Shown here piece by piece: positions 5,661 to 35,169 of a DNA stretch of 64,000 nucleotides. The notes below the pieces were generated by a model that was given only the letters and a program-made list of their open reading frames with translations, made no database searches and was not told the DNA's origin. Origin of the DNA: Candidatus Xenobia bacterium (GTDB taxonomy: Bacteria; Vulcanimicrobiota; Xenobia; Xenobiales; QWHO01); NCBI GenBank assembly GCA_045863235.1, contig BTUM01000022.1, positions 1-64,000 of the forward strand, given 5' to 3'. A program made the translations under genes and the position numbers. The stretch's first letter is position 1; each line of letters starts with the position of its first letter.

Positions 5661-5721
5661 CGGCCGACCGCGTTCGCCCAGACGGCGGGGATTCCCGCCC
5701 CGAGCGGAGAAGCGCCCCCCC

Positions 5722-14188: not shown

Positions 14189-14203
14189 GGAACGCTCAAC
14201 CGA

Positions 14204-16067: not shown

Positions 16068-17000
16068 TCAGGCGTAGACCGGCTCGCGGGAGAGGGGCGA
16101 CTCGGGCATGGGGGAGTCGTACTGCTCGGGGAAGTACTTCGAGAGCAGCCGGGCCCGCTCGGGGTAGGCCTCGCGGAACTGCTGCAAAGCCTCCGGACCG
16201 GCCTCCTTCGCCTCCTTGTAGGCTGCGTAGCTCTCGGCGAAGTCGTCGGCTCGCTCGTTGCCGGGCAGCACGAACCAGTCATCCATCTTGTCGTCGTGGC
16301 TGGACTTTCCGTAGGTGCTGATCTCGCGCCCGTCGCGCCGGGCCGCCTCGCTCCAGCCCTCGGGCACCAGCGCGTAGCTCTCCTTGTAGCCCACCGCGTG
16401 GCCGACCTCGTGGTCGAAGTTGGTCTGATCCAGGGTACCCTTGCCAAAGAAGGTCAGTTTCTGGCCCGAGCTGGAGTACTGGGCGTCGGTGTTGGAGCCT
16501 TCCGGGCGGTCGGCGAAGGTCACCGACTTGAAGCTGTCCTGGGCGAACTCGGGCGAGCGGCTGTGGTAGTCGGCCAGCCTGGCCAGCAGCTCGGTCCGAT
16601 CTTGCTCGGAGTAATTCTGGGTGAAGTCGACGTCAACCGGCTTGCCGTTCAGGGTGTAGCGGTAGTTGTCGCCGTCGCGGGTGATCTGCAACTCGGACGA
16701 CTTGCCGCTGGCATCGGTGAACGAGACCGGCTGGTTGCTGCGCAGAGCCTCCTCGACGCTGGCGTTCTGGCGATTGACCAGCTCCGGAGTGCGCTCGGAC
16801 TCGTCCACCGGCGGGTGCCACTCGCTCTCGCTGGGCAGCTGGTAGGGCTTCTTCGTTTCCTGCTTGGCCTGCGTGGAAAGCTCGACCTGATCCTTGGGCT
16901 CCGGGGTCGGGGTGGGCTCAGCCTTCTTGGGAGGGGTCGCTCCCGCCCCCGCGCCCGCTGCCGCCTGGACCGTGCTCGCCTTCAGCTCTTGAATCGCCAT
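16068..17000 (-). CDS. Putative zinc metallopeptidase with low-complexity FlgM-like N-terminus
   Basis: HEVGH, then DDFAES and YPER; AGGAGG RBS; no Sec signal. Confidence 0.75.
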   Translation of the reverse strand: MAIQELKASTVQAAAGAGAGATPPKKAEPTPTPEPKDQVELSTQAKQETKKPYQLPSESEWHPPVDESERTPELVNRQNASVEEALRSNQPVSFTDASGKSSELQITRDGDNYRYTLNGKPVDVDFTQNYSEQDRTELLARLADYHSRSPEFAQDSFKSVTFADRPEGSNTDAQYSSSGQKLTFFGKGTLDQTNFDHEVGHAVGYKESYALVPEGWSEAARRDGREISTYGKSSHDDKMDDWFVLPGNERADDFAESYAAYKEAKEAGPEALQQFREAYPERARLLSKYFPEQYDSPMPESPLSREPVYA

Positions 17001-17019
17001 CGTTCCTCCTGAGTTGTCC

Positions 17020-17037
17020 TGGTGAGCTCAGGATAGG
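17020..17037 (-). promoter_or_regulatory. Upstream motif CCTATCCTGAGCTCACCA (-10-like TATCCT), shared with 34378-34395
   Basis: 15/18 identity with the motif upstream of the 34414 gene, at nearly the same distance from the ATG. Confidence 0.6.
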
Positions 17038-17078
17038 CGGGGGACCGTCCCGGAAGTTGGCCCGGGCGGGCCGGATTC

Positions 17079-17118
17079 TTGAACAGATTGTTACAGGCGC
17101 GTGAACAGCGCGTTAACA
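17079..17118 (-). promoter_or_regulatory. Four direct repeats at 11-bp period (OmpR/PhoP-box-like)
   Basis: Plus strand TTGAAC(17079), GTTACA(17090), GTGAAC(17101), GTTAAC(17112). Confidence 0.55.
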
Positions 17119-17126
17119 TCCTGGCT

Positions 17127-18761
17127 TCAGCGCAGCAGGCGTCGGCTCAAAGCGTGCGGGACGCCCGGGGGCGGATCCAGCTCCACCGACTGGTCCCAGC
17201 GCTCGCTGGTCATGCCCGGGGGCACGCAGTAATCCGCGCGCACGTACCAGGGAGAGCGACCGGTGGCCAGCTGGGAGGGCTCGTTGTCAAGGGTGGCCAT
17301 GGTGCGAAAGTCGAGCCAGCAGGTGCCGCCCACCCGGGCCAGCTCCTGGCCCGTCCAGTCCTCCAGGAAAGCGTACTGGCGCGGCCGCTCGTTGCTGGGC
17401 ACGTAGTAGGGCGAGCCCGGCACCTGGCTGCGCAGCAGGCCCTCGCGTGGCTGCAGGCCCTCCACCACCAGGGCGTTGCACTCGATCGTGTCGGCCGGAT
17501 CGCCGGCAAAGAGGGGGGGATCGGAGGCGGGGGGGTTCACGGTGGAGTAGCTGGCGGCGTCGTTGAAGCCCGAGGAGAGCAGCCACACCGAGTCGCGCGC
17601 GATCAGACCCACCGAGCGCTTGCGCAGCGCTCCGGTGGCATCGCGCTCCTTGTTGAAGTCGCCCTGGATGTAGAGCGAGGCGTTGCACATCACGGTCAGG
17701 TTGGCCGGCAAAAAGTGAGCGTTCTTGAGGCGAAGCGGTCCCTCGCTGTAGAGCATGCCATTGGACGGGAAGCCCCCGGCGCTGATCAGGGCGGCCACAT
17801 CCAGGTCCTTGACGCGCACCTCGCGCCCTTCGGCCTGGTTGAAGAAAGCGGCATCGGCGCTGCCGGCCAGCAGCTGGATCTGAGCCTGGCTCGCGAAATA
17901 GCCCGAGGGCAGCAGGCAGCTGGCCCGGGGCGCCGGCAAACGCCTGGCTCCCAGGCGAGCGTCGCGCACCACGCCCCCGTAGCGGCTGAGGGCCTGGCGG
18001 GTCCACTCGCTCCAGCGCGAGTCGTAGTAGCTGTTGCGCCGGGTCAGCTCGGCAAAGATGCCGTCGGGCCGCAGCACCTGGACGTACGACATGGGACCGC
18101 CCCCGCTGCACTGGATCTCATCGGCGGCCGAAACGGTGGGTCCGTAGAAGGCCACCGGCGCGCCGCTGAAGAGGCGGTGGTAGACGCGCAGATCGCCGTT
18201 GGCGTGGACCGGGCCGTGCACCTGGTAGGGGATCCAGAAGGGGCCCTGGCCCACGATGACCCCGTCGCCGTCGGCGAAGAAAGCATAGCGGGTGAGCGGC
18301 TCCAGGTCGCCCTCCAGGCTGCGCTCGGCGGAGTGGGTCCCCCAGCTTGCCCGGCTCACAATGCGGAAGCTACGGGCGTCCGGCCGGGTCACCCGGATGC
18401 GGAAGCTCTCGCTCTGGCCGGTCCCGGTCAAGGAGAGAGCTGGATCGTCGCCCGGGTCCCAGCGCCACTCCCACCAGCCGTCCGAACGGCGGGTCACTCC
18501 TGGAAACAAGGGCGGCGCCCCGGCCGCCGGGGTGCCGTCGCTCTGGTGGGTCACGGCGTAGCCCCCGCTGTCGCGGAAGGCAGCGAAGGCGGCCTCCAGG
18601 CCTGTCTCGGCGAGATACTGCAGGCGGGTCTGCACCACCCGCATGTGCGCCTCGCGCCGGGTGGCCCCGGCTCGCTCCATGACCAGGGCAAGCGAGAGCA
18701 AGAAGATCGGGATCAGGCTGATGGTCACGAACAGGGTCAGGCCCCGGCGGTCAGGGCGCAT
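17127..18761 (-). CDS. PilX-like large minor pilin
   Basis: RRG|LTLFV class III signal lacking E5; YLAETGLEAA; GPVHANGDL; LYIQGDFN. Confidence 0.75.
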   Translation of the reverse strand: MRPDRRGLTLFVTISLIPIFLLSLALVMERAGATRREAHMRVVQTRLQYLAETGLEAAFAAFRDSGGYAVTHQSDGTPAAGAPPLFPGVTRRSDGWWEWRWDPGDDPALSLTGTGQSESFRIRVTRPDARSFRIVSRASWGTHSAERSLEGDLEPLTRYAFFADGDGVIVGQGPFWIPYQVHGPVHANGDLRVYHRLFSGAPVAFYGPTVSAADEIQCSGGGPMSYVQVLRPDGIFAELTRRNSYYDSRWSEWTRQALSRYGGVVRDARLGARRLPAPRASCLLPSGYFASQAQIQLLAGSADAAFFNQAEGREVRVKDLDVAALISAGGFPSNGMLYSEGPLRLKNAHFLPANLTVMCNASLYIQGDFNKERDATGALRKRSVGLIARDSVWLLSSGFNDAASYSTVNPPASDPPLFAGDPADTIECNALVVEGLQPREGLLRSQVPGSPYYVPSNERPRQYAFLEDWTGQELARVGGTCWLDFRTMATLDNEPSQLATGRSPWYVRADYCVPPGMTSERWDQSVELDPPPGVPHALSRRLLR

Positions 18762-19395
18762 TGCGAAGCTCCGAAAGCAGTTCCAGGCTGCCAGAGGTCA
18801 CCGGCCCGCGCTCGCTCACCTTGCGATAGGTCAGTTCAAAGCTCGCGAGGCGGTCCGTGACCGACCAGCGCACGGTCAGCGAGCCCGGCTCGAGATAGAC
18901 TGCGTAACGCCGCTCGTTGCCGCCGGTGGCCAGGGCCAGGTCGAGCTGATCGGGAGCCAGGCGCGGGCAGGCTACGGCCGGTTTCTCGTAGAGCACCAGG
19001 TCGAGCGCCTGCGGGTTGCGCGGGTCGGGCGGGGTATGCGGCTGTGCTGACAGGGCCACCACCGTGACGGTGCCGCCGCTCGGCTCCGGGATGGCCGCCA
19101 CCAGCGTCTCCCAGCTGGTGGAGGGCAGGCCGGGGAAGCGGTAGAGCTGGCTTCCCAGGGTCACATCGGGGGCGTCCCAGACCACGAAGGCGGCGGCCGA
19201 AAGGAGATCGTCCAGACGGCGCGTCAGCAGGGCCTGCTCGCGAGCCAGCTCCCAACTGCCGGCGCGGGCTCGCTCGACGGTGCGCAGGGTGCTCCAGACG
19301 CCCAGGATGGTGGCCATCATCAGGCCGAACAGACCGGCCACCAGCAGCACCTCGGCCAGGGTGTGAGCGCGCCTCACGGGGGGCGAGGGCCTCAT
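18751..19395 (-). CDS. Minor pilin (PilW/GspJ-like)
   Basis: RRA|HTLAEVLL prepilin motif; ATGA overlap with upstream gene. Confidence 0.75.
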   Translation of the reverse strand: MRPSPPVRRAHTLAEVLLVAGLFGLMMATILGVWSTLRTVERARAGSWELAREQALLTRRLDDLLSAAAFVVWDAPDVTLGSQLYRFPGLPSTSWETLVAAIPEPSGGTVTVVALSAQPHTPPDPRNPQALDLVLYEKPAVACPRLAPDQLDLALATGGNERRYAVYLEPGSLTVRWSVTDRLASFELTYRKVSERGPVTSGSLELLSELRNAP

Positions 19396-19760
19396 CGCCA
19401 CAGGGTGCGCGTCAGGCGCACCAGCGGGGGGCGGCCGGGCCGGGGCACCGCTCCGGCCACGGCCGGGTCGGCCGGCCAGACCACGGCAGTGGCTCGCTTG
19501 CAGCCGAAGGTGAGGGGAGTGACGGAAAGCTCCACCACCAGCTGCCCGTGGCGCTTGCGGGCCTGGCTGGCAGCCGAGGGGTAGTCGGTCAGCGCTTCGA
19601 GCTGGTTGCGGGCCAGGCGGTGGGCCTGGGACAAGAGCCGGCCCTGCTCATCCATGCGCTGAGCCTGCAGGCAGGCGGCCAGGACCGCCAGGGCATAGAC
19701 CAGCAGGACCGCTCCCGAGAGCACCAGCTCGGCCAGGCTGAGTCCGCGCGAACGCCGCAT
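19392..19760 (-). CDS. Minor pilin (PilV/GspI-like)
   Basis: MRRSRG|LSLAELV prepilin motif, hydrophobic helix, AHRLARNQLE. Confidence 0.75.
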   Translation of the reverse strand: MRRSRGLSLAELVLSGAVLLVYALAVLAACLQAQRMDEQGRLLSQAHRLARNQLEALTDYPSAASQARKRHGQLVVELSVTPLTFGCKRATAVVWPADPAVAGAVPRPGRPPLVRLTRTLWR

Positions 19761-19762
19761 TC

Positions 19763-20269
19763 TCAGGTAGATTCGCCGAGAAGGGGGGATTGTCCGGCTG
19801 CCCCCCGCCAGGCGCACAGGCGCTGCACCACGGCGGGTCCGCTGGCAAGGCCCTGCTCGAATGCGATCACGCTCAGCTCGGGGAAGGCGTGCAGCAGCTC
19901 GTCCGGTCGCAGGAGGAAATCGGGATTGGTGGGCCGTCCGTAGGCTTCCTGACCTTCGGCAAAAGTCTCGTAGATCAGCACGCCCCGCGGAGCCAGCGCC
20001 GCGGCCAGCACCGAGAACAGGGGACGGTGCAGGTAGTTGGTCACCACGATGCCGGCGAAGAGCTGACCGGGAAACGGCCAGGGGTCGGCTTCCAGGTCGG
20101 CCCGCACGACCTCGGGCCCGGCGCTCTCCCTGTCGACCGCCACCACCTGGTAGCCGAGAGCGAGCAGATAGAGGGTGTGCCGACCGCGGCCAGAGGCGAC
20201 GTCGAGCACCGGATGCGGGCCCTTCTCGATGAGAGGCACCCAGCGCGCGACCCAGGGCGAAACGGTCAA
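19763..20269 (-). CDS. SAM-dependent methyltransferase (TehB-like)
   Basis: VLDVASGRGRH, VVTNYLHRPLF, GVLIYETF, GRPTNPDFLL; TTG start overlapping the upstream stop. Confidence 0.85.
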   Translation of the reverse strand: MTVSPWVARWVPLIEKGPHPVLDVASGRGRHTLYLLALGYQVVAVDRESAGPEVVRADLEADPWPFPGQLFAGIVVTNYLHRPLFSVLAAALAPRGVLIYETFAEGQEAYGRPTNPDFLLRPDELLHAFPELSVIAFEQGLASGPAVVQRLCAWRGAAGQSPLLGEST

Positions 20270-20652
20270 CGAGGACGCTTGCCGGAGTTGCCCAGCACGT
20301 TGCCGCGCAGGTCCATGCTGATGCGTTGCCTGAACTCGGGTGTGAGCGTATCCAAGATGACGTCCCCGTCGCGGCGAATGAAGGCCAGGCGCTGGAGCGG
20401 GCGCTGGCCGTCCGGGCCCCCCAGCTCGAACACCCAGACCACGCTGTCGGGCTTGCTCACGAACTGCCAGCCATGCTCGCGGGCGAACTCCTGGCCTTGA
20501 GAATAGGACTGCACCTGGGTGCGAACGTCGCGCACCAGGTCCTGCTCGCACAGGCCGCTTTCGACCAGCGACGCGAGCAGGCTCGCGTCCACCTGCGAGG
20601 ACGCGTTGTGCGGGGAGCGGAGCGAGGCGAGGGGCATGACGGGGGAGAGCAC
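20266..20652 (-). CDS. Hypothetical protein (start GTG 20652 or ATG 20637)
   Basis: Fills the gap; TACCCT 6 nt before the GTG; TTGA coupling to the next gene. Confidence 0.6.
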   Translation of the reverse strand: MLSPVMPLASLRSPHNASSQVDASLLASLVESGLCEQDLVRDVRTQVQSYSQGQEFAREHGWQFVSKPDSVVWVFELGGPDGQRPLQRLAFIRRDGDVILDTLTPEFRQRISMDLRGNVLGNSGKRPR

Positions 20653-20727
20653 GGTTGCAGGGTAGTCGGCGCGGGCGGCAGGCGGGTTAGCAATCTGTTG
20701 CCAGTTCGTCGTATACTCAACCTGCTC

Positions 20728-22863
20728 GTGAAGTTGAACCTTATCTGCGGTCTGCTGGCAGCGATCCTGGCGGTCGGGGCGGTGCTCTCGGGAGTGTTGT
20801 CGCAGCCCGAGGTGGTGCTGGCCCTGGCGGTGCTGGCCGCCCTGGTCTCCTCGGGAGTCTTTCGGCTGGCTCCGGCGGTGGTGGCGGGGGCCTGCTGGAG
20901 CATGGGCCCGGCCGGGGGCGCTCTGGTGGCCGGGGCGGCCGCCCTCAGCGCCGCCCTGCGCGGTGGAGCGGCTCAGCTGGGGCGCGACGCCCTGGAGGGG
21001 CTGGGGGCGGGAGTGGGCGGAGCCGTGCTGGCGGGAACCATGGCCCGGCCCGAGCTGGCCCCCTGGCTGGGAGCTCTGCTCTTCGTGTCCCTGCAGCTGG
21101 TGCGTTACGCCGGGCAACCGCTGGCGGCTCAGCAGGTGCTGGGGCAGCCCCTGCTGGCGATGCTGCTGGCTCTCGCTCCCCTCTCCCTGTTGCCGGTGAT
21201 CGCCGCGCTGGCTCTGCTCTGGCGCCAGGCGGTGGTGCAGAGCCAGGAGCCCCTGGAGCCGGCCGACCGGCGCAAGCTGGAGTGGCAGCTGGGCAAGCTC
21301 GAGTCCAGCCTGGACCGCCAGGGGCAGGCCCGCGACCGGGCCCGCCGCGACCTGGCCAGCGCCCGGACGGCCTACAACCAGCTCGAGGTGCTGATCGGGC
21401 TGGTCAGCGTGGGCACCGACCTCGCGGCCACCCGCGAGCGCGTGCTGGAGCTGGCCGGCCCCTACGACACGCTGGTGCTGTTCGAGGGCTCCGAGCTCGC
21501 GCCCACGGCCTTTCGCGGCGGTCCGGCCGAGCGGCTGGCCTCGGCCGAGCTGCTGCGGTTGGGTGAGCCCTGTGTGCAGGCCTGCTTTGAGAGCAAGCGG
21601 GCGGTCGCCGCCTTCGGCAGCGAGCGCTTGCTGGAGGACCGCCACGGCCTGGCCCTGCCGGTGGAGCCCGAGGCGGTGCTCTACGTGGGCTCGCGCCAAC
21701 CGATCAGCTCCGAGCAGCAAGACGCCCTCTCCACCCTGGCCGGCCAGGCCGGCCTGGCTCTGGAGGCGGCCCGTCGGCTCGACCGCCAGCACCAGGCCCT
21801 GGAGCGCGAAGAGCAGGCCCGCCGTTCTCGCGACGAGCAGGCCCGGGCCCTGGAGCAGCTGCTGGTCTTCACCACGGCCCTCTCCCAGCGGCTCGACATC
21901 GATGATCTTCCCGAGCAGCTCGGTGGGCTGATCCCCCACCAGAGGGGCTGGCTGGAGGCCAGCGACCGGCACCTGAGCTGGCCCGACCCGGCTCCGCTCC
22001 CGAATCTCGAGGTGAGCGCCCCCCTCATCTTGCCCGAGCTGATCGCCGTTCCGCTGGAGGAAGGGGGAGCCCTGCTGTTACAGGCTCCCTCCTTCAAGCG
22101 CAAGCACCTGTACCTGCTGCAGTTCGCGGGGCTGGCCGTGACGGCCGCCCTGGCCCGCAGCCGCCTGCACGAGGAAGTGCGCCAGGCCTACGCCCACCTG
22201 AGCGAGTCGCGCCGCCTGGCGGCGGTCGGCGAGCTGGCGGCCGGAGTGGCCCACGAGATCAACAATCCCATGGCCGCCCTGGCCCTGGCCCTGGAAGGGG
22301 CGCTGCTCAAGCTGCGCAGCCAGCCCGAGCTGGCCGAGCGCAAGCTGGAGCGGGCCTTCGAGGTGGTGGAGAGGGTCAAGGCCATCACCGGCAAGTTGCT
22401 CTTTTATGCCCGCGACGCCCACCTGGCCCGGCCCACTCAGGTCAACCAGGTGGTGCAGGACACGCTCGAGTTCCTCGAGCCCGGCCTGACCCGTGAGTCG
22501 ATCGGGCTCGAGCGCGAGCTCTCCGAGCTGCCGCTGGTGCAGACCGACCCCCACGGGCTGCACCAGGTGCTGACCAACCTGGTGCTCAACGCCAGAAACG
22601 CCCTGGGCCAGGTACCGGAGGACCGGCGCCAGCTCAAGGTGGCCACCCGGTTGGAAGGGGAGCGCCTGCTGGTGCAGGTTTCCGATACCGGTCCCGGAAT
22701 CGAGCCGGCCATGCAGGAGAAGATCTTCCAGCCCTTCTTCACCACCCGCCCCGACGGCACGGGCCTGGGCCTGTCGACCAGCCGCGAGATCGCCCGCTCG
22801 CAGGGTGGCGAGCTGAGGCTGGAGCCGCCCTCCACCTTCGTGCTGGAGCTACCCCTGAGATGA
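20728..22863 (+). CDS. Membrane sensor histidine kinase with GAF-like domains
   Basis: N-terminal TMs; AHEINNP H-box; NLVLNA, DTGPGI, FQPFFTT, GTGLGL. Confidence 0.92.
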   Translation: MKLNLICGLLAAILAVGAVLSGVLSQPEVVLALAVLAALVSSGVFRLAPAVVAGACWSMGPAGGALVAGAAALSAALRGGAAQLGRDALEGLGAGVGGAVLAGTMARPELAPWLGALLFVSLQLVRYAGQPLAAQQVLGQPLLAMLLALAPLSLLPVIAALALLWRQAVVQSQEPLEPADRRKLEWQLGKLESSLDRQGQARDRARRDLASARTAYNQLEVLIGLVSVGTDLAATRERVLELAGPYDTLVLFEGSELAPTAFRGGPAERLASAELLRLGEPCVQACFESKRAVAAFGSERLLEDRHGLALPVEPEAVLYVGSRQPISSEQQDALSTLAGQAGLALEAARRLDRQHQALEREEQARRSRDEQARALEQLLVFTTALSQRLDIDDLPEQLGGLIPHQRGWLEASDRHLSWPDPAPLPNLEVSAPLILPELIAVPLEEGGALLLQAPSFKRKHLYLLQFAGLAVTAALARSRLHEEVRQAYAHLSESRRLAAVGELAAGVAHEINNPMAALALALEGALLKLRSQPELAERKLERAFEVVERVKAITGKLLFYARDAHLARPTQVNQVVQDTLEFLEPGLTRESIGLERELSELPLVQTDPHGLHQVLTNLVLNARNALGQVPEDRRQLKVATRLEGERLLVQVSDTGPGIEPAMQEKIFQPFFTTRPDGTGLGLSTSREIARSQGGELRLEPPSTFVLELPLR

Positions 22864-25046
22864 GCCGCATTCTCCTCTTGGAGGACGATGAGCAGGTGCG
22901 CGTCGAGCTCGAGGAGCTGCTCGACTCGGAGGGATACCAGGTGCACGCCGCCGCCACCGGGGCGGCAGCCATCGAGCTGGCCGGCGAGCACCGCTTCGAC
23001 CTCATCGTAGCCGACGTCAAGATGGAGGGGATGGATGGGCTGACGGCTCTCTCGCAGCTGCGCCAGGCCGACCCGGGGCTGGCGGCGCTCGTGATCAGCG
23101 GCTACTCCGACGAGGCCGACACGCTGCGGGCGCTGCGGCTGGGGGCGGGCGACTTTCTCAAGAAACCGTTCCGCGTGGCCGAGCTCTTGAGCGCGGTGGA
23201 AACACTGCTGGAGCGGCGCCGCCGCCAGCTGGCTCAAGACGAGCGAGACCGGGCCGCCCGCCAGCTGGCCCGCTGGGCGGTCACCTCGCTGGCCCGCTCC
23301 AGCGAGCTGGGCAGCTCTCGGACGGGTCTGCTGGAGGCGGCCGCCCTGGCCGGCAAGGCGGCCCGCCTGCAGGGTCTGGAGCCGTCCGAGGACGTCGAGT
23401 TGTTGACGCTGGTCTGGGGCCTGGAGGGCGACTACCCCGAGTTTTTCCTGGCCGGGTTGTCCGACCCGGTGCGCGACTGGCTGATCGAGCTGAGCCAGGA
23501 GCGGCCCGCCTCGCTGGCCGCCGGGCTGGCCCTGGCGGCCCTGGGACAGAGCGCTCCGAATGAAGCCGTGGAGGCCCTGGAGCAGGCCCGGCGCGAGGCC
23601 GAGCCGCCCCGATCCTCGGGCCGACAGCGACGCGACCTGCTCTCGCTGGGACAGACCCTTGAGCTGGCCGGCGACCTGGCCGGAGCCAGCCAGGCTTACG
23701 CCGAGCTGGTGGCCCACGCGCCCGGCAGCCTGGAGGCGCCCGAGGCCTCGCTTCGCTGCGCCACGCTCTTGATGCGCCAGGGTCAGCTCGAGCCGGCTCG
23801 CCGCCAGCTGGCCCAGGCCTGGCAGGCGGCTCGCCGCATCGGGCCCTCGTGGACTGCCCGGGTGGGCTTCGAGGTCGCCGTGCTGCTTCACCACCTGGGC
23901 GATCCGGAGGCGGTGGCGGTGCTGGAGGAAGCCAGCGGGAAGACCCAGGAGCCAGGCATTTCCCTGCGCTCGCGCCTGTTCGCCAGCGTCTGCCTGCAGC
24001 CTGAGCCCTCCCGGGCTCTCGAGCTGCTGGGCCAGCTCGCCCAGCACCCCCAGGAGCTTTACTCTTGTGCCGGCTGGCTCTTTCCCTGGCTGCTGCAGGC
24101 CGCTCCCGAGCATCCCCTGCTCGAGCGGCTGGCCCGCAACTGCCCGGGCGCCTTGTTGCGCCTCTTGCGGGCCGGCAAGCTGCCGCTTCAAGCGCGTCGC
24201 CGGGCTGGCGAGCTGCTCGAGCGGTTGGGCGGGGACAGTTTCCAGGAGGCCCAGAAGATTCTGCTGGCCGATCCCGAGCTTTCCGGCTGGGCGGCCGGGC
24301 TGGCCTCGGTCGCGGCGGCCGGCCCGACGCTGCGGCTCTTGACGCTGGGACGCTTCGAGCTGGCCCTGGGAGATCGGCCCGTGCCGCCCAATGCCTTCCG
24401 CAGCCAGAAGGTGCGTTTTCTGCTGGCCTGCCTGGCGGCCAACCGGGGCCGTCCGTTGAGCGAGGACATGCTGATCGAGACGTTCTGGGGAGACTTCGCC
24501 GAGACCGGCAAACAGCGGATCTACGCCGCCACCACCAACCTGCGGGCCATCCTGCGAGCGGCCCACCCCGAGCCGATCGTGCGCGAGCGAAACGGGATTC
24601 AGCTGGCTCCAGAGCTGGTCCTGTGGCACGATCTGGAGGAGGTGGAGCAGGCCCTGGCCGAGCCCGAGTCGGTGGAATCGCTGGGCCGGGTTGCCCGTCT
24701 CTACGCCGGCCCCTACCTCGAGTCGTGCTATTCCGATTGGGCGGTGATGCGGCGGGAGCGGCTGGAGCAGCGGGTGGGCCAGGCCCTGACCCGACTGGCC
24801 GAGTTGCTGCTGGCCCGGGGCCAGGTCGAGGAGGCCCTGGAGCAAGCCCACCACAGCCTGGAGCTGGATCGATGCCACCAGGAGGCCCACCTGCTGATCA
24901 TGCAGGCGCACCTGTCGGCCCGGCGGCCTGAGGAGGCCATCCGGCAGTATGAGAGCTGCTGCCAGACCCTGCGCAAAGAGCTGGCCATGGAGCCTTCCAT
25001 CGCCCTGATGGAGGCCTACCAGCGTGCCCGGCTGAGCCTGACCTGA
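22860..25046 (+). CDS. Response regulator: receiver + TPR-like region + SARP/BTAD activator domain
   Basis: ILLLEDD, DVKMEGMDG, KPF; LRLLTLGRFEL, LYAGPYL..YSDW, HQEAHLLIMQAH, LAMEPS. Confidence 0.88.
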   Translation: MSRILLLEDDEQVRVELEELLDSEGYQVHAAATGAAAIELAGEHRFDLIVADVKMEGMDGLTALSQLRQADPGLAALVISGYSDEADTLRALRLGAGDFLKKPFRVAELLSAVETLLERRRRQLAQDERDRAARQLARWAVTSLARSSELGSSRTGLLEAAALAGKAARLQGLEPSEDVELLTLVWGLEGDYPEFFLAGLSDPVRDWLIELSQERPASLAAGLALAALGQSAPNEAVEALEQARREAEPPRSSGRQRRDLLSLGQTLELAGDLAGASQAYAELVAHAPGSLEAPEASLRCATLLMRQGQLEPARRQLAQAWQAARRIGPSWTARVGFEVAVLLHHLGDPEAVAVLEEASGKTQEPGISLRSRLFASVCLQPEPSRALELLGQLAQHPQELYSCAGWLFPWLLQAAPEHPLLERLARNCPGALLRLLRAGKLPLQARRRAGELLERLGGDSFQEAQKILLADPELSGWAAGLASVAAAGPTLRLLTLGRFELALGDRPVPPNAFRSQKVRFLLACLAANRGRPLSEDMLIETFWGDFAETGKQRIYAATTNLRAILRAAHPEPIVRERNGIQLAPELVLWHDLEEVEQALAEPESVESLGRVARLYAGPYLESCYSDWAVMRRERLEQRVGQALTRLAELLLARGQVEEALEQAHHSLELDRCHQEAHLLIMQAHLSARRPEEAIRQYESCCQTLRKELAMEPSIALMEAYQRARLSLT

Positions 25047-25047
25047 G

Positions 25048-26064
25048 TTGGGACGAACGCTGGCGCTCTTCACCCGGGGCCTGGCCACGCTGGTGAGCAG
25101 CGGGGTGCCCCTGGGCCGAGCGCTGCAGGTGATGGCCGCTACCCGGGTGCTACCCGAGGAGGTGGCGGACGGCCTGATCGGGACGCTGCTCCGAGGGCAC
25201 TCGTTATCGGACGGTTTCAAGGCCTACCCCGCGCACTTCCCCACCTCCTACGTGGCGGCCGTGCGAGCCGCCGAGGGCACGGGCGCACTGGTGGAGGTGC
25301 TGCTGCGCCTGGCCGATCAGACCGAGAAATCGGCACGGCTGCGCCACCGGCTCCTGAGTCAGCTCAGCTATCCGGTGGTGCTGCTCATCTCGTGCGGGCT
25401 GGGGTTAGCGGTGCTGGTGCTGGGGTTTGTGCCCATGATGCTGCCGATGCTGGAGCAGTGGAATGCGCCCGCGCCCTGGCTGCTGGTCACTTTGACGGGC
25501 CTGGCCCGCAGCCCGGTGACCTGGGTGATGCTGGGATTGGGGCTGGTCAACCTGTTGCTGGCCGTCCTTTTGCTGCAACGCCGACCGGCGCTGCGATCGG
25601 CCCTGGAGCGCTCGTCGGCGAGCTGGCCACTGGTGGGAGGGGTGCGCCTGCGCCTGGCCCGGCTGCAGGCGCTGGACACGCTGATCTTGCTCCAGGAGGC
25701 GGGGGTGCCAGCCCGCACGTGCCTTCTGGAGGCGGCCCGAGGGCAGAGTCACGCCGAGCTGGCCGCCCGGCTGCGCGAGGCCGACGCGGCCCTGCTGGAA
25801 GGGGCTGAGCTGACTGCGGCCTTGCGCCAGGCGCGGGTCTTTAGCCCGCCCGCACTGCAGCTCTTGCTGGCGGGTGAGGCCGCCGGACGCCTGGCGCGGC
25901 TGATGCGCTGCGCGCGCAAGCTGGAGGAGGATGCCCTGGAGGCTCGCATCGAGCTGCTGGTCACCTTGAGCGAGCCCCTGGTACTGAGCGTGATGGGGCT
26001 GGCGGTCGGGCTGGTGACGCTGATCACCCTGATGCCGATGCTCACCTTGTTGGCCCGGCTCTGA
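25048..26064 (+). CDS. pilC: Type II secretion system F / PilC platform protein
   Basis: FTRGLATLVSSGVPL, AAEGTGAL, LSYP, AGEAAGRL, EPLV; three TMs. Confidence 0.88.
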   Translation: MGRTLALFTRGLATLVSSGVPLGRALQVMAATRVLPEEVADGLIGTLLRGHSLSDGFKAYPAHFPTSYVAAVRAAEGTGALVEVLLRLADQTEKSARLRHRLLSQLSYPVVLLISCGLGLAVLVLGFVPMMLPMLEQWNAPAPWLLVTLTGLARSPVTWVMLGLGLVNLLLAVLLLQRRPALRSALERSSASWPLVGGVRLRLARLQALDTLILLQEAGVPARTCLLEAARGQSHAELAARLREADAALLEGAELTAALRQARVFSPPALQLLLAGEAAGRLARLMRCARKLEEDALEARIELLVTLSEPLVLSVMGLAVGLVTLITLMPMLTLLARL

Positions 26065-26118
26065 ACCAGACCCTCTCATTCAAGACGCGCCGCCACCAGA
26101 GGGCCGAGTGCGAGCGCA

Positions 26119-29082: not shown

Positions 29083-29148
29083 GCTCGAGCGGTTCCCCGA
29101 AAGTCGGGGGGGAACCTTTCTGGGGGACCAGAAACTGACTTCGAGCCG

Positions 29149-31227
29149 ATGGACAGGAAGAAGCTGCGCTTCGACGAGGATTCCCCGCTGCCCGACCGCT
29201 TCGAGCTGCTCTCGGAGGTGGGTCGGGGAGGCATGAGCGTCGTCTACCGCGCTTTCGACCGCGAGCTCGAGCGGGAGGTGGCCGTCAAGCTCTTGCCCGA
29301 GGGGGCCCGGGGCGGGCCGCTCAGCGAGCGCTATCGGCGCGAGGCGCGCGAGCTGGCGCGCTTGAGGCACCCCAACGTGGTGGGGCTGCTGGGGGAAGGG
29401 GTGCACCGGGGGCGCGACTACCTGGTGCTGGAGTATGTATCGGGAGGCGACTTGCGCCGCTTCCTGCAGCGCCCCCGGCCCCGGGCCGAGCTGCTGAGGC
29501 TGTTCGAGGGGGTGAGCCGGGGACTGGCCGAGCTGCACGCACTGGGCCTGGTGCACCGGGACATCAAGCCGGAGAACGTGCTGATCGGAGCGGACGGAGA
29601 GGCCCGGCTGAGCGACCTGGGGCTGGTGCGCTCGTTGGACTCCAAGACCCACCTGACCACCGAGGGGGCGCTGGTGGGAACGATGTGCTACCTGGCACCC
29701 GAGCAGATCGTGTCGGGCGAGCTGTCGGCCGCGGCCGATCTCTATGCGCTGGGGGCCTGCCTGTATGAGGCGCTGGTCGGTGCGCCGCTGTTCGAGGGGC
29801 GCACCGAGTTCGAGATCATGCAGCACCACGTGCGCGACGAGCCGGTGGCACCGGGCGACCGGTTGAACGGTCTGGACGGGCGGCTGAACGAGCTCGTGCT
29901 TCGGCTCGTCAGCAAGGACCCGGCGCTGCGGCCGAGCGCCGAGGAGACCGCGGACATCCTGGGCGAGTGCCTGCGAACCCCCGCTCCGACCGCGCCGGAG
30001 CCGGACGCGGCCGTGGGCGCGGTCGAAGTGCGGTCGGCGGTCGAGCCGGGGCCGGTCTTGGTGGACGCGGTCGAGGCTCTGGCGGAGTCGGAGGCGGCGC
30101 CGGTCGAGCCGGGGCCGGTCGTGGTGGGCGCGGTCGAAGTGCGGTCGGCGGTCGAGCCGGGGCCGGAGTTGGTCGGCGCGGTCGAGGCTCGGGCGGAGTC
30201 GGAGGCGGCGCCGGTCGAGCCGGCGCGACGCAGCCTGGTGGCTCCGCTGGTGGCTCTCTTCGTGGTGGTCTCGCTGCTGGTCGGTTACGGAGCCACGGGG
30301 CGCTACAAGCGGCTGGCGCTCGACTCGGAGCCGCACGGGGCGGCCGTCAGCCTGGATGGCCGGCCGGTCGGGCACACGCCGGTGAGGCTAGACGGCCTGG
30401 CGCTGGGGCGCCACCAGCTACGGCTGGAGAAAGCCGGCTACATGCCCTACTCCGAGTCGGTGGAGCTGGCCGTGGGGCAGATCCACCCCCCTCGCACCAT
30501 CGCCCTGCAGCCAGCGGCTCGTCTGCCGCTGGAGCTCACTCCCTCCGACACTCAGGTGCTGGTGAACGGCAAGAGCGTCTCCCTGACCGATGGGGCCCTG
30601 GAACTGGCGCCCGGAAGCTATCGGCTGGAGCTTCGGCGGGCCGACCATCTGCCTCAGACCCGTCAGGTGAGCCTCGTTGCGGGCGACAACCCGGCCCTGG
30701 CGATCGCCTTGAAGAGCAGCCAGGAGTCGCGACTCAAGGTGCTGGCCCCGGCCGGGGCGAGGATACTGCTCGACGGCCAGCCGCTCAAATCAGAGACGGT
30801 GCGTCCGGGGAAGCACGAGCTGGTGGTGCGAAAGAGCGGCCATCGCGAGCACCGCCGGAGCCTGGAGCTCGATCCCGGGGCAGAGCTCGAGGTCAGGGTT
30901 GCTCTCGAGCCTGCCGCCCCCAGCCTGAAGGTCACCGCTCGACCCGCAGCCACGGTCTATCTCAACGGGGTCGAGCGAGGGCGGACGCCGGTCAGCCTGA
31001 CCGGGCTCACGCCGGGAGCCTGTGAGCTGAAGCTGACCGCGCCCGGCTACCAGACCGCCCGTAAGAAGCTCAACCTGAGCCCTGGAGCCACCCGCAACCT
31101 GGCCTTTCAGCTCGAGCCTCTGCCTCCCCCGGAGCCGGTGTACGAGGCTCCGGCCGGACCGGCCTGGTATCCGCCCCCGGCACAGGACCCTCCAGCCCCC
31201 GGCCCGGTGGCCACGCCCGACGAGTGA
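29149..31227 (+). CDS. Membrane Ser/Thr protein kinase with PEGA domains
   Basis: GRGGMS, VAVK, HRDIKPEN, DLG, YLAPE; one TM; SEPHGAAVSLDG..GHTP and VYLNG..RGRTP PEGA repeats. Confidence 0.92.
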   Translation: MDRKKLRFDEDSPLPDRFELLSEVGRGGMSVVYRAFDRELEREVAVKLLPEGARGGPLSERYRREARELARLRHPNVVGLLGEGVHRGRDYLVLEYVSGGDLRRFLQRPRPRAELLRLFEGVSRGLAELHALGLVHRDIKPENVLIGADGEARLSDLGLVRSLDSKTHLTTEGALVGTMCYLAPEQIVSGELSAAADLYALGACLYEALVGAPLFEGRTEFEIMQHHVRDEPVAPGDRLNGLDGRLNELVLRLVSKDPALRPSAEETADILGECLRTPAPTAPEPDAAVGAVEVRSAVEPGPVLVDAVEALAESEAAPVEPGPVVVGAVEVRSAVEPGPELVGAVEARAESEAAPVEPARRSLVAPLVALFVVVSLLVGYGATGRYKRLALDSEPHGAAVSLDGRPVGHTPVRLDGLALGRHQLRLEKAGYMPYSESVELAVGQIHPPRTIALQPAARLPLELTPSDTQVLVNGKSVSLTDGALELAPGSYRLELRRADHLPQTRQVSLVAGDNPALAIALKSSQESRLKVLAPAGARILLDGQPLKSETVRPGKHELVVRKSGHREHRRSLELDPGAELEVRVALEPAAPSLKVTARPAATVYLNGVERGRTPVSLTGLTPGACELKLTAPGYQTARKKLNLSPGATRNLAFQLEPLPPPEPVYEAPAGPAWYPPPAQDPPAPGPVATPDE
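30013..30222 (+). repeat. 111-bp in-frame duplication in the kinase juxtamembrane linker
   Basis: VGAVEVRSAVEPGP.LV.AVEA.AESEAAPVEP occurs twice. Confidence 0.9.
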
Positions 31228-31340
31228 GGCCAGAGGCAGGCTGGTGCAAAGGGGACTCCGGGGTTTCCTTCGATCCCTTGCAGGGGGAGCTCTCACTGCC
31301 CAGCTCCAGCGACCGGGAAGCAGGCCCGTCTGACGCTTCG

Positions 31341-33116
31341 CTAATGAGAATCCCACCATCCCAGCCCTTCGGGAACCTCGATCGACAGGCTCTTCTGGTC
31401 CACCCCGTGGGCCAGCAGCACCCGGTCGAGCCGCTCGTCGCTCATGGCTCGTGAAAACCATAGCAGGGCTTCCTCACGGGGGCTAGCCCCCCGCTCCAAG
31501 AGCGCCTCGATGGCGGAGATTCGCGCCTGGTCCAGGGCTGCGGAGCGCAGGGTCGTTCGCAGGGCCAGGTGGCAGAGCTGGGAGAGCACCTCGCTGGGGT
31601 CCGGCCCCTCCTCCAGCAGCGCCTCCAGGACGGACCGGTCGAGCTTCCAGTAGCTGGCGGCATGCAGGGCCGCGCTGTGTCCGTCCCGGTCGCGGGCCAG
31701 TCGGTCGGCTCCGGCCGAGAGCAAGAAGGGGACGCTGCGAGCCGCGGCTGGCGTCCCGGCGGCCAGCATCAAAGCGGTGAGCCCCGCTCCATCGGCCGCT
31801 TCCAGCCTGGCCCCAGCCCGCAGCAACTCCTCGGCCGTCTCCAACTGGCCACAGCAGACCGCCAGGGCCAGGGCGGTTCGACCCTGGTCGTCTCGAGTCT
31901 CCAGGTCGGCTCCCCGGGCGACCAGCCACCGGAGGGTGTCCCGCTGGCCCGCCACGGCCGCGGCCATCAGGGGTGTCTGGCCGGCCCAGCGCTCCTCGGG
32001 GCCCAGGCCGGCCCCGCGCTGCTCGGCGCCCAGGCCGGCCTCGCGCTGCTCGGGGCCCAGGCTGGCCCCGCGCTCCTCGGCGCCCAGGCCGGCCCCGCGC
32101 TCCTCGGGGCCCGGGCCGGCCCCGAGCAGGGCCTCCAGGATAGCCGTCCGCCCCAGAGAGGCCGCCAGCGACAGGGCCAGGGCTCCGCCCACCGGCGGAC
32201 GGGAGAGCGCCTCCAGCAGCCGCCGCACGGCAGCCAGATTGTCTCGACTGACCGCCTTGTGCAGCGCGCTGTGCCCGTTCACGTCCACCGCTTCTGGATC
32301 GGCCCCCAGCTCGAGCATACGGCTCACCAGCTCGACCTCTCCCACCGCGCCCATCAGGGGGGTTTCTCCCGCCCCGTTGCGTCCGTCCAGACGGGCCCCG
32401 TTCTCGAGCAGCCACTCCACCGCCTCGGTCCAGCCGCCACGCGCGGCCGCCAGCAGGGCCGCGCCGGTGGGCTCGGCGCCCCGCTCCACCAGCTCCTTCA
32501 TCAGGTCCATCCGGCCTTTACTGGCAGCCATTTCCAGCAGTGTGGGCCAGGTCGTGGAGCGGGCCCGCTTGACCTGAATCTCGGATCCCCCCTGGACCAG
32601 GGCCAGGACGCAGTCGCAGCAGTCGGTATCCGCGACGGCCGTCGCCCCGTCGGCCGTCGCGAGATTCGGATCAGCGCCCGCTGCGAGCAGGGCCCGCACC
32701 GCCTGGCAGTGGCCCAGGTAGGCCGCCTCCATCAGGGCGGTTCGCCCACGGGCGTCGCGGGCGTTTACCGGTGCCCCCTCTTTGACCAGCAGCTTGATGG
32801 TCTTGCTCTGATCGCCCACCGCTGCCGCCCGGAGGGCCGTCCAGCCGTCTTCGTCAGAAAAGTCGACCGGCGCTCCCGCTTCCAGCAAGCGAATCACGGC
32901 CGGGACCTGCCCCCTGCGACTTGCTTCCAGCAGCGCCTTACCCAGCTCTTCGCGCGACCAGTCCCGTTGCGCCAGGACAGCGGGCAGGTCGGACGGGATC
33001 GCTTCCACCAGCTCCAACGGGTAGCCGGCCGACTGCAGGGCGCGGCGGAGGGCGGCCGGGTCCGGCTCCGGGCCGAGCTCCTGGGCCATCTTCACCAGCC
33101 GGGCGATGCTCTTCAC
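31341..33116 (-). CDS. Ankyrin repeat protein
   Basis: Multiple GxTALxxAA...LLxxGAD repeats. Confidence 0.9.
   Translation of the reverse strand: MKSIARLVKMAQELGPEPDPAALRRALQSAGYPLELVEAIPSDLPAVLAQRDWSREELGKALLEASRRGQVPAVIRLLEAGAPVDFSDEDGWTALRAAAVGDQSKTIKLLVKEGAPVNARDARGRTALMEAAYLGHCQAVRALLAAGADPNLATADGATAVADTDCCDCVLALVQGGSEIQVKRARSTTWPTLLEMAASKGRMDLMKELVERGAEPTGAALLAAARGGWTEAVEWLLENGARLDGRNGAGETPLMGAVGEVELVSRMLELGADPEAVDVNGHSALHKAVSRDNLAAVRRLLEALSRPPVGGALALSLAASLGRTAILEALLGAGPGPEERGAGLGAEERGASLGPEQREAGLGAEQRGAGLGPEERWAGQTPLMAAAVAGQRDTLRWLVARGADLETRDDQGRTALALAVCCGQLETAEELLRAGARLEAADGAGLTALMLAAGTPAAARSVPFLLSAGADRLARDRDGHSAALHAASYWKLDRSVLEALLEEGPDPSEVLSQLCHLALRTTLRSAALDQARISAIEALLERGASPREEALLWFSRAMSDERLDRVLLAHGVDQKSLSIEVPEGLGWWDSH
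31981..32122. repeat. 27-bp in-frame tandem repeat x5 inserted in an ankyrin repeat
   Basis: G(P/A)E(E/Q)RGAGL units. Confidence 0.88.
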
Positions 33117-33245
33117 TGGCTCATGGTAGCACGATTGAAGGGTCCGCGCAGGCAGCCGCCAGAGACGATGTGCCGGAGGAAGCCCGACCGCCCGGCACCG
33201 TCGAAGGCCCGGTAGCTACCCGCGTCGCGCAGCCGGACGACCTTC

Positions 33246-33968
33246 TCAGGGGTGCCTGGGGCTCGGCTCGCAGGAATCGGCCCACGCGAGAAAGACCTCG
33301 AGCCTGATGCCCTCCCCCGTGGGGTCTGGGATCGCGGCCACGGAGTATCCCCCTTCGGCCAGGAGATCGAGCCAGGTCTGGCGGGGGAACAGCCCCACCT
33401 GGTGGCGGTCGACCACCGTGCGCAGCTCCCCGTTCTCTTTCATGACGAGGATGTAGTCACAGTCCACTACGGTGTCGTCGGGATCCGGATCGTGGGTCCA
33501 CTCCAAGTAGCGGATCTGACGCTCGGGGCCGTCTTCGCCCCCATGATCGGTGCTGGGCCGGAAGTTCTCCTTGAGATGGTCCGGAGCCACCACGATCCGC
33601 CTGGCGTGGCGCTTGGCGGTCGTCAGGGCTTTCCGCAGATCCTCCAGGGTCGTCATATACATAATGGCGTCGTGAATCAGCACCGCGTCGAACTCGCGCC
33701 CCAGATCCAGCGTGCGCATATCCCCCACTACGTGCTCGCACTCGGGGTTCTGGGCCAAACTCATGGCCAGCATCCGGGGGCTGAGGTCGGCCAGGGTCAG
33801 CTCGAACTCCCCTTTGATCCACCAGGCGACATTGCCCCCCCCACATCCCAGCTCAAGCACGGTACGAGCGGGCCTCAGCAAGGTGGCCAGGAAAGCCGCC
33901 TCCTCCTCGTACTCGCTGGTGGGGGAAACCAGCTGCCACCATTCTGCCAGGTCGGAGTAGAGCATCAT
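33246..33968 (-). CDS. Class I SAM-dependent methyltransferase
   Basis: VLELGCGGG, DLSPRML, GDMRTL, FDAVLIHDAIMY. Confidence 0.9.
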   Translation of the reverse strand: MMLYSDLAEWWQLVSPTSEYEEEAAFLATLLRPARTVLELGCGGGNVAWWIKGEFELTLADLSPRMLAMSLAQNPECEHVVGDMRTLDLGREFDAVLIHDAIMYMTTLEDLRKALTTAKRHARRIVVAPDHLKENFRPSTDHGGEDGPERQIRYLEWTHDPDPDDTVVDCDYILVMKENGELRTVVDRHQVGLFPRQTWLDLLAEGGYSVAAIPDPTGEGIRLEVFLAWADSCEPSPRHP

Positions 33969-34377
33969 CGATCGGGCAAGTCGCCAATCTGCATCAGGGG
34001 ATGCGCACGGCGGGAGCTCCCAGGAAGGCGCTCAGCTGGTTTCGCAAGGCCCAACTCGCGCAGCCTTCGGGTCTGATCCACGACCCCGTTCGGAATCCAT
34101 CGGCTCTCCGGTATCAGGAAGGTCGCTCCCACGCCGTAACCTGAGGGACATGACCTCAATTTCGGGCGCCGCGCTGGAATCTCCCCTTTCGGACTTCTTC
34201 GACCTGCCCAGGCCCGGTCGCCCTGTCCCCTCCCGGCATACGGCTCACGAAGCTGCGCAACTCTTCCTGGGTCATCAGGCCGGGTCTGGCGAGTCTTTGT
34301 GAACCACTTATGAACGATTTGTGGCTTTCTGTTCATCTTTCAGCCCTGCCCGGGACCACCCCGGGGAAGTTGCCTGT

Positions 34378-34395
34378 CCTACTCTGAGGTCACCA
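34378..34395 (+). promoter_or_regulatory. Upstream motif CCTACTCTGAGGTCACCA (-10-like TACTCT)
   Basis: Matches 17020-17037 at 15/18 positions. Confidence 0.6.
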
Positions 34396-34413
34396 ACACG
34401 ATGGAGGTGCCCG

Positions 34414-35169
34414 ATGGGAGCCAGTGCGATTGAGGGAAAAGCGGCGGCCAGCATCCAGAGCCCGAAAGTGACTCCGAAGAAAGAGCAGCAGGCTGCCGTG
34501 GCCCGGGCGGAGGCCGAGCCGAAGGACACGGTGGAGCTCTCTCGACAGGCTCAGCTGAGCCAGAATCGCACCGAGGGCCAGGGTCCCGGCTGGAAGCGCT
34601 CGGACGACAAGGTCCAGCTCGATGAGCAGCAGACTCGCGTGCTCGACGAGATGGGGGAGGAGTATACCCGCTCCACCGATGGCCAGGAGCTGCGTGTGAC
34701 CAGCGGCAAGCGTACCCCCGAGCAGACTTCCAAGCAGCTCTATGACGACATCCGCGACGGCAAGGCCGATAGCCTTTACGGCGACAAGCCCGAGTATCAG
34801 GAGCTCAAGCAGATCTATCAGAGCTCAAACGACGAGGAGGCTGTGCGCCAGCAGATGCTGGAGAAGGTGCAGCAACAGGAGAGCGAGGGCCGCTACCTGA
34901 GCAATCATCAGGTCAGCAAGTCGTTCGACATCAGCACCCGGGGGATGACCGCCGATGAAATCGAGACGGCCCGGCGTATCGCCACGGAGAAGGGTCTCAC
35001 CGTGAAGGATGAGGGGGACCACCTGCACATGGACTTCCCCGACGCTCCGGTCGAGACGTCGCCCAATTCGCCGGAGGACATCACGCGCCAGGAGCAAGAG
35101 GACCGCGATTACAACTCGACCTATCGAGGCCAGTGGCACAACTGGTGGAACGGCTATCGCAAGTGGTAG
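34414..35169 (+). CDS. Putative M15/LAS-type Zn peptidase with FlgM-like N-terminus
   Basis: GGAGG RBS; VTSGKRT, SNHQVSKSFD (H-x6-D), DHLH (HxH). Confidence 0.7.
   Translation: MGASAIEGKAAASIQSPKVTPKKEQQAAVARAEAEPKDTVELSRQAQLSQNRTEGQGPGWKRSDDKVQLDEQQTRVLDEMGEEYTRSTDGQELRVTSGKRTPEQTSKQLYDDIRDGKADSLYGDKPEYQELKQIYQSSNDEEAVRQQMLEKVQQQESEGRYLSNHQVSKSFDISTRGMTADEIETARRIATEKGLTVKDEGDHLHMDFPDAPVETSPNSPEDITRQEQEDRDYNSTYRGQWHNWWNGYRKW

Follow-up and report, generated by a model that had tools for sequence, protein, structure and literature searches.

A shared N-terminal leader suggests export of two unrelated peptidases by a flagellum-derived secretion apparatus in Eremiobacterota

In this work we analysed a stretch of 64,000 nucleotides from a Candidatus Xenobia bacterium (contig BTUM01000022.1, positions 1 to 64,000; hereafter the window), in which two peptidase genes, here called gene 1 and gene 2, share an upstream DNA block and an N-terminal leader and carry different catalytic domains. 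Our observations suggest that both are cargo of a lineage-wide protein export system, in which a disordered Pro/Ala/Ser/Thr-rich N-terminus of 25–50 residues, ending in P-x-D-x-V-x-L-S, would replace the Sec signal peptide. The most likely exporter of both peptidases is a flagellum-derived secretion apparatus without motor or filament, and we give a probability of about 0.6 to the reading of the leader as the export signal of this machine. The genome that holds the window (G000; Eremiobacterota, Xenobia-like) comprises 8.36 Mb and is 97.6% complete; its 7,145 genes were called in this analysis, and the genome-wide protein and upstream counts for G000 rest on that set. Comparisons covered 36 genomes of the class for the machine and for a pilin-like family, 201 genomes of the phylum for the pilin-like family, and 43 other genomes of the class for gene 1 and gene 2.

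Results

The leader is borne by many proteins of G000. The plain pattern D.V.[LI]S occurs 45 times at residues 20–40, which corresponds to 31.5 per 100,000 residues, compared with 3–7 per 100,000 past residue 100. A leader profile finds 148 of the 7,145 proteins at a score of at least 12, for 11 expected from internal windows; its consensus, P-x-D-x-V-x-L-S after a Pro/Ala/Ser/Thr-rich stretch, lies at residues 25–34 in 89 of the 148. When the profile was trained on half of the contigs, it found 59 and 57 matches in the other half, where 8 and 1.7 were expected. A hydrophobic N-terminus is present in 4 of the 148 leader proteins vs 1,914 of the 6,997 others (27%). The initial annotation had called for a catalogue of the domains downstream of the leader, and we made it by a Pfam scan of 62 of the 148 proteins (57 with top or near-top ranks, a paralogue of the gene 1 product, others taken by rank, and two from the window). 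Half of them (31) have a match and the other 31 have none; proteases, glycosidases, lipases and phosphoesterases dominate the matches, with a few oxidoreductases, and the degradative families include S8 (five), C11 (three), C39, M14, S9, GHL10 (two), trehalase, patatin, lipase and GDPD. Two further leader-bearing genes lie in the window on the minus strand, at 44698..45177 (159 aa) and 50367..53057 (896 aa), both without a Pfam match. The 16 close S8 subtilase paralogues of G000 all lack a hydrophobic N-terminus, as do all but one of the S8 and clostripain-like C11 proteins (16 each), many of which start with M-[QKNR]-[IV]; the proteins with the motif may be only part of what is exported.

The leader recurs in other genomes (G056, G002 and the congeners G042 and G206). 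In 400-kb samples the score was reached by 7 of 333 genes in G000, 6 of 329 in G056, 3 of 306 in G002, 0 of 388 in G010 and 2 of 355 in G075, with an internal control of 0 in each sample; one G056 match and both G075 matches look false. A leader count across genomes by DNA pattern was dropped because merely 13–25 of 34–110 matches were leaders. The leader of the gene 1 product (P0001, residues 4–56) gave a weak match to the N-terminal half of the flagellar export substrate FlgM (TIGR03824, positions 4–60; E 0.021). FlgM has in addition a sigma-binding C-terminal half, which has no counterpart in the P0001 leader, and a profile search of G000 found no FlgM over the cut-off.

Gene 1 (16068..17000, minus strand) encodes P0001, 310 aa, composed of the leader, a small beta domain and a zincin domain with HEVGH (197–201) and DFAES (253–257). 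Gene 2 (34414..35169, plus strand) encodes P0002, 251 aa, composed of the leader and a zinc peptidase domain of the M15/LAS fold (H165, D172, H203, H205). The leader cores are D-Q-V-E-L-S in P0001 (residues 37–42; 16875..16892, minus strand) and D-T-V-E-L-S in P0002 (residues 38–43; 34525..34542, plus strand), with profile ranks 5 and 8 of 148. The initial annotation described both proteins accurately: TP(P)KK and EPKD(Q/T)VELS(T/R)QA are present in both N-termini, neither has a Sec signal (the best 10-residue hydropathy is only 0.89 and 0.76), the HExxH...DFAES and M15/LAS motifs are present with their zinc ligands, and the catalytic domains differ, the parts after the leader being unrelated (alignment score 37). 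Neither protein has a Pfam, NCBIfam or PDB sequence match.

P0001 carries the zincin signature, HExxH plus a third ligand E, and H197, E198 and E256 are invariant in the six rows of its alignment. Its model has a pLDDT of 67.6, with residues 1–64 predicted to be disordered, and its best fold matches are ATLF/PPEP metallopeptidases, with which it shares the HExxH and the downstream E in [DE]FAE; these matches are weak (E 3e-3, none at E ≤ 1e-3), and P0001 differs from these enzymes by an identity of 10–17%, a TM by query of at most 0.39 and the lack of toxin delivery domains. P0002 has 215 relatives at E ≤ 0.001. In an alignment of 62 homologues H165 and D172 are invariant and S163, E200, H203 and H205 are conserved in at least 95%, so that the S-x-H...D...H-x-H arrangement of the M15/LAS fold (VanY, M15_3, DUF5715) is kept, with zinc ligands H...D...H on a hedgehog/DD-peptidase fold. 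Its Atlas model resembles M15, DUF5715 and LysM-linked domains (TM 0.45–0.67), and the M15 fold suggests peptidoglycan as a possible target. Unlike the M15/LAS families, P0002 lacks a Pfam match; where relatives carry LysM domains, peptidoglycan-binding domains or signal peptides, it has the leader. Its closest relatives, P0008 and P0009, bear the same leader core and, as judged by eye, P0010, P0011 and P0014 bear a close variant of it; distant relatives have other N-termini, hydrophobic in 31 of 137.

Relatives of P0001 (27–45% identity) occur in 20 of the 43 other class genomes, and P0002 was found in none of the 43. After the WD40 gene, where gene 1 would be expected, the congeners G042 and G206 have a different leader-bearing enzyme, a protein glutaminase in opposite orientation. 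Gene 1 and gene 2 are therefore accessory genes that arrived recently. Just upstream of gene 2, positions 34068–34281 of the window hold remnants of two genes that are intact at G000:C139:9661-10284, whose product presumably resembles a Uma2-type nuclease, and at G000:C77:2258-2428.

The DNA upstream of the two genes is also shared. As the initial annotation stated, two 18-mers identical at 15 of 18 positions end 19 and 18 nt upstream of the start codons of gene 1 (ATG at 17000) and gene 2 (ATG at 34414) and are followed by GGAGG, which proved exact. The first (17020..17037, minus strand) contains a –10-like TATCCT (17035–17030) and would form the promoter and the start of the 5' untranslated region (UTR) of gene 1, with the Shine–Dalgarno GGAGG at 17009–17005 (minus strand); the second (34378..34395, plus strand) contains TACTCT (34380–34385), with its Shine–Dalgarno sequence at 34403–34407. 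The likeness extends over ungapped 78-nt blocks, 17020..17097 (minus strand) and 34318..34395 (plus strand), identical at 51 of 78 positions: the 60 bases 5' of the 18-mer match at 36 of 60, and farther upstream the figure is 14 of 50. The 110-nt upstream regions are each other's best local match among the 7,145 genes (Smith–Waterman 52, next 40 and 36); their score is joint 5th among 10,878 leader-gene pairs, and the likeness of the two leaders ranks 39 of 10,878. Before gene 1, four GTT(A/C)AC-like half-sites with a spacing of 10–12 nt (three tandem pairs, a number that no other gene of the genome exceeds; 17080..17117, minus strand) probably form an activator box. Before gene 2, one half-site (34331–34336) stands in the same register on its own strand and two half-sites 11 nt apart lie on the minus strand (34299..34315) and could serve gene 2 or another gene.

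The initial annotation proposed a promoter-plus-leader cassette shuffled onto different hydrolases. For the pair this stands, one promoter, 5' UTR and leader block being found on two unrelated peptidase domains, and the leader does behave as a lineage-wide tag on diverse hydrolases. The block is not a general unit, as the exact 18-mer occurs nowhere else: its strict pattern has 2 matches in the 8.36 Mb, with 5 at up to two mismatches and 53 at up to three, and the P-x-D-x-V-E-L-S scan of the first 60 residues returned four proteins, of which the two beyond the pair lack the 18-mer. The core CCTA-nn-CTGAG with one mismatch allowed lies within 60 nt of 88 starts, just five of them leader genes, and would be the organism's –10 box plus flanks. 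Co-occurrence of DNA and peptide motifs did appear for more general elements. GTT(A/C)AC-like half-sites at 11-nt spacing form 95 pairs upstream of genes vs 5 in coding control windows, and at least two tandem pairs precede 39 genes vs 1 of 5,228 coding controls; gene 1 (in the top ten), a FlgE-like gene of the export cluster described below and a pilin paralogue are among the 39. A pair precedes 231 genes, and 27 of these belong to the 148 leader genes (odds ratio 7.4, p 1e-13). Among 11 orthologous regions, 6 keep the box upstream of the FlgE-like gene, vs 1–3% of sampled genes. Such 11-nt direct repeats are typical of OmpR/PhoB-type regulators, and the box may place some of the machine genes and some of the cargo genes under common control. 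Because the exact 18-mer is confined to the pair yet the generalised elements co-occur, we favour a general export tag and a regulon, with one recent duplication of the cassette.

A second promoter type is suggested by TTTCA about 25 nt before a leaderless ATG, found for 28 of 148 leader genes vs 151 of the 6,997 others. The order of elements in this type is TTTCA, TAnnnT, then the ATG, and the –10 part is present on 34 of 148 vs 389 of 6,997. CCCGGG at a fixed distance from the –10 box was rejected as a genome-wide element by inspection (53 matches, mostly coding). RNA-library contigs X1–X4 were set aside as evidence for expression or start sites, as their depth is similar over both genes and the DNA between and they may be DNA.

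The candidate exporter is encoded mainly at G000:C27:60720-79252, a cluster that comprises flgB, flgC, fliE, fliF, two fliG-like genes, fliH, fliI, fliJ, a lytic transglycosylase gene, fliK, a 271-aa FlgE/G-like gene, fliM, two fliN, fliO, fliP, two fliQ, fliR (named from its position and a weak profile likeness), flhB and flhA. A second locus, G000:C74:407-2313, holds by inspection flgF, flgG and a FlgJ-like gene. The features of a flagellum that are present are the gate (FlhA/FlhB/FliPQR), the ATPase complex (FliHIJ), the MS- and C-rings and the rod (FlgB, FlgC, FliE, FlgF/G). FlhA, FlhB, FliP, FliI and FliF exceed flagellar cut-offs and not those of SctV/SctU/SctR; FlhA scores 814.6 with TIGR01398, above the cut-off, and 616.5 with TIGR01399, below it. 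Flagellin, MotB, FlgD and FlgI were not found in G000, 97.6% complete as it is, and FliC, FliD, FliS, FlgK, FlgL, FlgD and MotA of relatives gave no tblastn match there; the machine has no flagellin, hook cap, junction, filament cap or stator. Among the marks of a non-flagellar type III secretion system (T3SS), an SctV-type gate, absence of FlgB/FlgC/FliE and a secretin in the locus, none was found, the secretins of G000 sitting in type II secretion system (T2SS) and type IV pilus clusters. By these marks the machine fits neither the flagellum nor the SctV-type injectisome. As marks of an extracellular contractile injection system (eCIS), a type VI secretion system (T6SS) or a type VII secretion system (T7SS), a contractile sheath, VipB and WXG100 proteins were looked for in G000 and not found. 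One chemosensory cluster is present.

Six stand-alone matches to the FlhA cytoplasmic domain are scattered in G000 (C80:28012-29436, C3:26973-28175, C1:377631-378872, C106:14866-16857, C107:13658-15829 and C24:20419-20700), some fused to other parts (by eye, one is FlhB-C-like and one starts FliG-like), and some relatives have up to 10 copies. These domains are possible substrate adaptors. A complex prediction of the FlhA C-domain with P0001 residues 15–60 gave 0.48 vs 0.38 for the control and was not used as evidence.

The FlhA type of this machine is present in all 36 class genomes. Flagellin, FlgD, a strong MotB and a second near-full-length FlhA (43–51%) co-occur in the same 9 of these genomes, and weak MotB matches are found in two more; 27 of the 36 lack flagellin and FlgD. 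In an unrooted tree of 27 FlhA sequences, in which long branches meet, the class FlhAs are grouped (99/97), apart from four SctV (100/100) and from eight flagellar FlhAs that include the relatives' own (88/89). G010 and G075 were picked as machine-negative controls and both proved to hold a diverged copy of the cluster, whose FlhA joins the class group (100/98). Strongly diverged copies of the cluster lie in the other large class at G010:C1:2786001-2820000, G033:C1:1360001-1395000 and G075:C2:915001-950000; a true flagellum is present in some genomes with the diverged cluster and not in others.

Downstream of the export cluster are a conserved 104-aa gene, three identical 81-aa genes and a 473-aa gene. 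The 473-aa protein has a D-E-V-T-L-S leader at its start (with a low profile score, 2.9) and a C-terminal domain like the 81-aa protein; the motif is present on the long pilin-domain protein at the cluster end in G000 and G002, and on 10 of 30 long pilin-domain proteins (many of them near-identical orthologues) vs a background of 219 of 7,145. The 81-aa protein has no Pfam or NCBIfam match. Its Atlas language-model features score 0.90–0.91 to clusters with HrpA_pilin on 23–24% of members and 0.88 to a HrpE-like cluster, and we take the HrpA/HrpE likeness as a lead only. The family occurs in 31 of the 36 class genomes and 44 of the 201 phylum genomes, with 9 matches in G000, and named records with a member come mostly from Eremiobacterota/Vulcanimicrobiota, Xenobia and Bruticola. 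A lone homologue (47%) was met in a Firmicute, at L178:9983-10249 of a Desulfitobacterium record, with no export genes nearby.

Other features of the window were also noted. By inspection, pilin- or pseudopilin-like groups and a PilC-like gene lie at 17127–19760 (minus strand), 38791–39935 (plus strand) and 25048–26064 (plus strand), the first of these regions being missing at the matching place in G042 and G206. Positions 14123–14210 belong to an intergenic repeat of 40–90 nt present in dozens of copies in G000 and its congeners, and 4581–5762 (minus strand) is an enzyme-like open reading frame interrupted midway by a tandem Gly/Ala/Ser-rich peptide repeat.

Discussion

The best account of these observations would be that the leader, which resembles the N-terminal half of FlgM, is read by a type III apparatus (C27 and C74) that keeps the export gate, ATPase, C-ring, MS-ring and rod and lacks filament, hook cap and stator, its conduit being probably built from the 81-aa HrpA-like pilins. 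The machine most plausibly works like a T3SS. We link it to the leader because the motif and the repeat box are found on genes of its cluster and of the pilin family, and because it is of a non-Sec type known to read disordered N-terminal signals. In such a system a promoter-plus-leader block would have been duplicated and fused to two different peptidase domains, cargo being recruited by copying the block, and the cargo might act on prey cells or polymers.

Several observations weigh against this account. The gene calls, starts included, are our own. Gene 2 lacks a same-strand tandem pair. P0004–P0006, the closest homologues of P0001 (41–43%), have disordered N-termini without the motif, which is also missing from the core substrates FlgB, FlgC and FliE and the 81-aa pilin. 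The resemblance to FlgM is weak and concerns one of 30 leaders, the other 29 giving no match. Some cargo proteins resemble cytoplasmic ones (P450, FAD oxidoreductases, AAA, desaturase), and 29 of the 148 proteins have a transmembrane-like stretch past the motif. CesT-type class I chaperones gave 0 matches in a search without a positive control, the control genomes also giving 0. The model of the 81-aa protein, made from an 8-row alignment, is one long helix and not the hairpin of a needle subunit, and five genomes of genus g5 have the FlhA type and no pilin match with the query used. Finally, G010 and G075 keep a diverged cluster, yet the leader was reached there by none and by two genes, both unconvincing.

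Alternatively, the leader may be a genuine targeting tag that sends proteins by a different route or to a different place, such as vesicles, a scaffold on the surface, a compartment inside the cell or a translocon so far unrecognised, and the C27 machine would then build no more than a short pilus or a sensor. The link between tag and machine is indeed one of guilt by association, G000 has secretins of a T2SS and of type IV pili, cofactor-dependent enzymes and membrane-like helices occur among the cargo, and diverged machines persist where the G000-type tag is unseen. We nevertheless consider this reading rather unlikely, since T2SS and type IV pili handle Sec/Tat substrates and the cargo lacks hydrophobic signals, since neither sheath, VipB nor WXG100 was found in G000, and since tag and repeat box are present on genes of the machine cluster or the pilin family. 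It is considerably less probable that the machine serves motility or adhesion as a divergent organelle whose filament and stator escaped recognition, in which the leader marks ordinary flagellar late substrates and the export of enzymes is a side activity, as in the flagella of Campylobacter and Yersinia. This would account for core proteins that pass flagellar and not SctV/SctU/SctR cut-offs, for the rod, FliE, FliK, FliG, FliM and FliN being kept, and for the chemosensory cluster. However, nine class genomes hold a complete second flagellum alongside the machine, MotA, MotB, FlgD, FlgK, FlgL, FliD and FliC were not found in G000, and more than 100 tagged enzymes are too many for a side activity.

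Two other alternatives concern the sequences themselves. The likeness upstream of gene 1 and gene 2 could be due to convergence on the same activator box and –10 element rather than to a duplicated cassette; the shared anchors GTTCA and TAnnCT are both genome-wide elements, and the 66% G+C of the DNA raises chance identity. We find duplication the better explanation and convergence a minority view, as the match is ungapped across 78 nt including the spacer, is reciprocally best among 7,145 genes and runs into the leader, and as the upstream comparison did not show the many unrelated regulon members scoring equally high that convergence predicts. That the leader family is spurious, produced by low complexity, wrongly called starts or over-fitting of the profile, is scarcely credible: the starts do come from our own caller, the profile was trained on N-termini and about 11 of the 148 members are expected to be false, but the plain-pattern enrichment at residues 20–40 and the cross-validation already largely refute it, and the tag recurs in other genomes. 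Export of both peptidases by the flagellum-derived apparatus is the reading we prefer.

If this reading holds, a positioned motif on more than 100 natural substrates means that point mutation could test what the export gate reads; to our knowledge, type III export signals have no consensus. A motor-less, filament-less machine present throughout a class, beside a separate true flagellum, bears on the origin of injectisomes. Standard annotation would wrongly label such cells as flagellated and the enzymes as cytoplasmic, and so large a set of enzymes points to organisms that prey on others or degrade polymers in sludge, soil and gut. In the literature searched, with subscription papers outside its coverage, we found no account of the leader or of the machine, and a filament-less, motor-less secretion apparatus of this kind appears undescribed. 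Paoli et al. suggest that marine Eremiobacterota are predators; flagellar and T3SS profile matches are listed in the available part of their paper, where they are not read as a filament-less export machine (PMC9259500). Yabe et al. report no flagella seen and no flagellin gene in Vulcanimicrobium (PMC9758169).

More broadly, Eremiobacterota may have undergone a second, independent conversion of a flagellum into a delivery device, in which rod and C-ring are kept, a Hrp-like pilus replaces filament and motor and at least 130 enzymes carry a sequence-defined type III signal derived from or shared with FlgM, cargo being gained by block copying; we advance this tentatively, at somewhat less than even odds. 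The closest precedent is the filament-less basal body of Buchnera, cited as a proposed secretion system (PMC3459982; PMC8109811), which like the G000 machine has an export gate and basal body without flagellin. The G000 machine differs in being inherited vertically across a free-living class, beside a separate complete flagellum in 9 of 36 genomes, and in having pilin genes of HrpA-like type and a presumed cargo of more than 100 tagged proteins. With non-flagellar T3SS of the Hrp and Myxococcales types it shares the lack of a motor and would share disordered N-terminal signals on diverse enzymes and perhaps a small helical pilin-like subunit. Yet it keeps FlgB, FlgC, FliE and FliG, which Abby and Rocha (2012) treat as flagellum-specific (FlgB, FlgC and FliE are named so there) and which the Myxococcales intermediate lacks (PMC3459982). 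It further differs from non-flagellar T3SS in that its FlhA falls outside the SctV clade, its cluster has no secretin and its presumed signal is a fixed sequence motif. The Eremiobacterota machine may resemble the intermediate between flagellum and injectisome.

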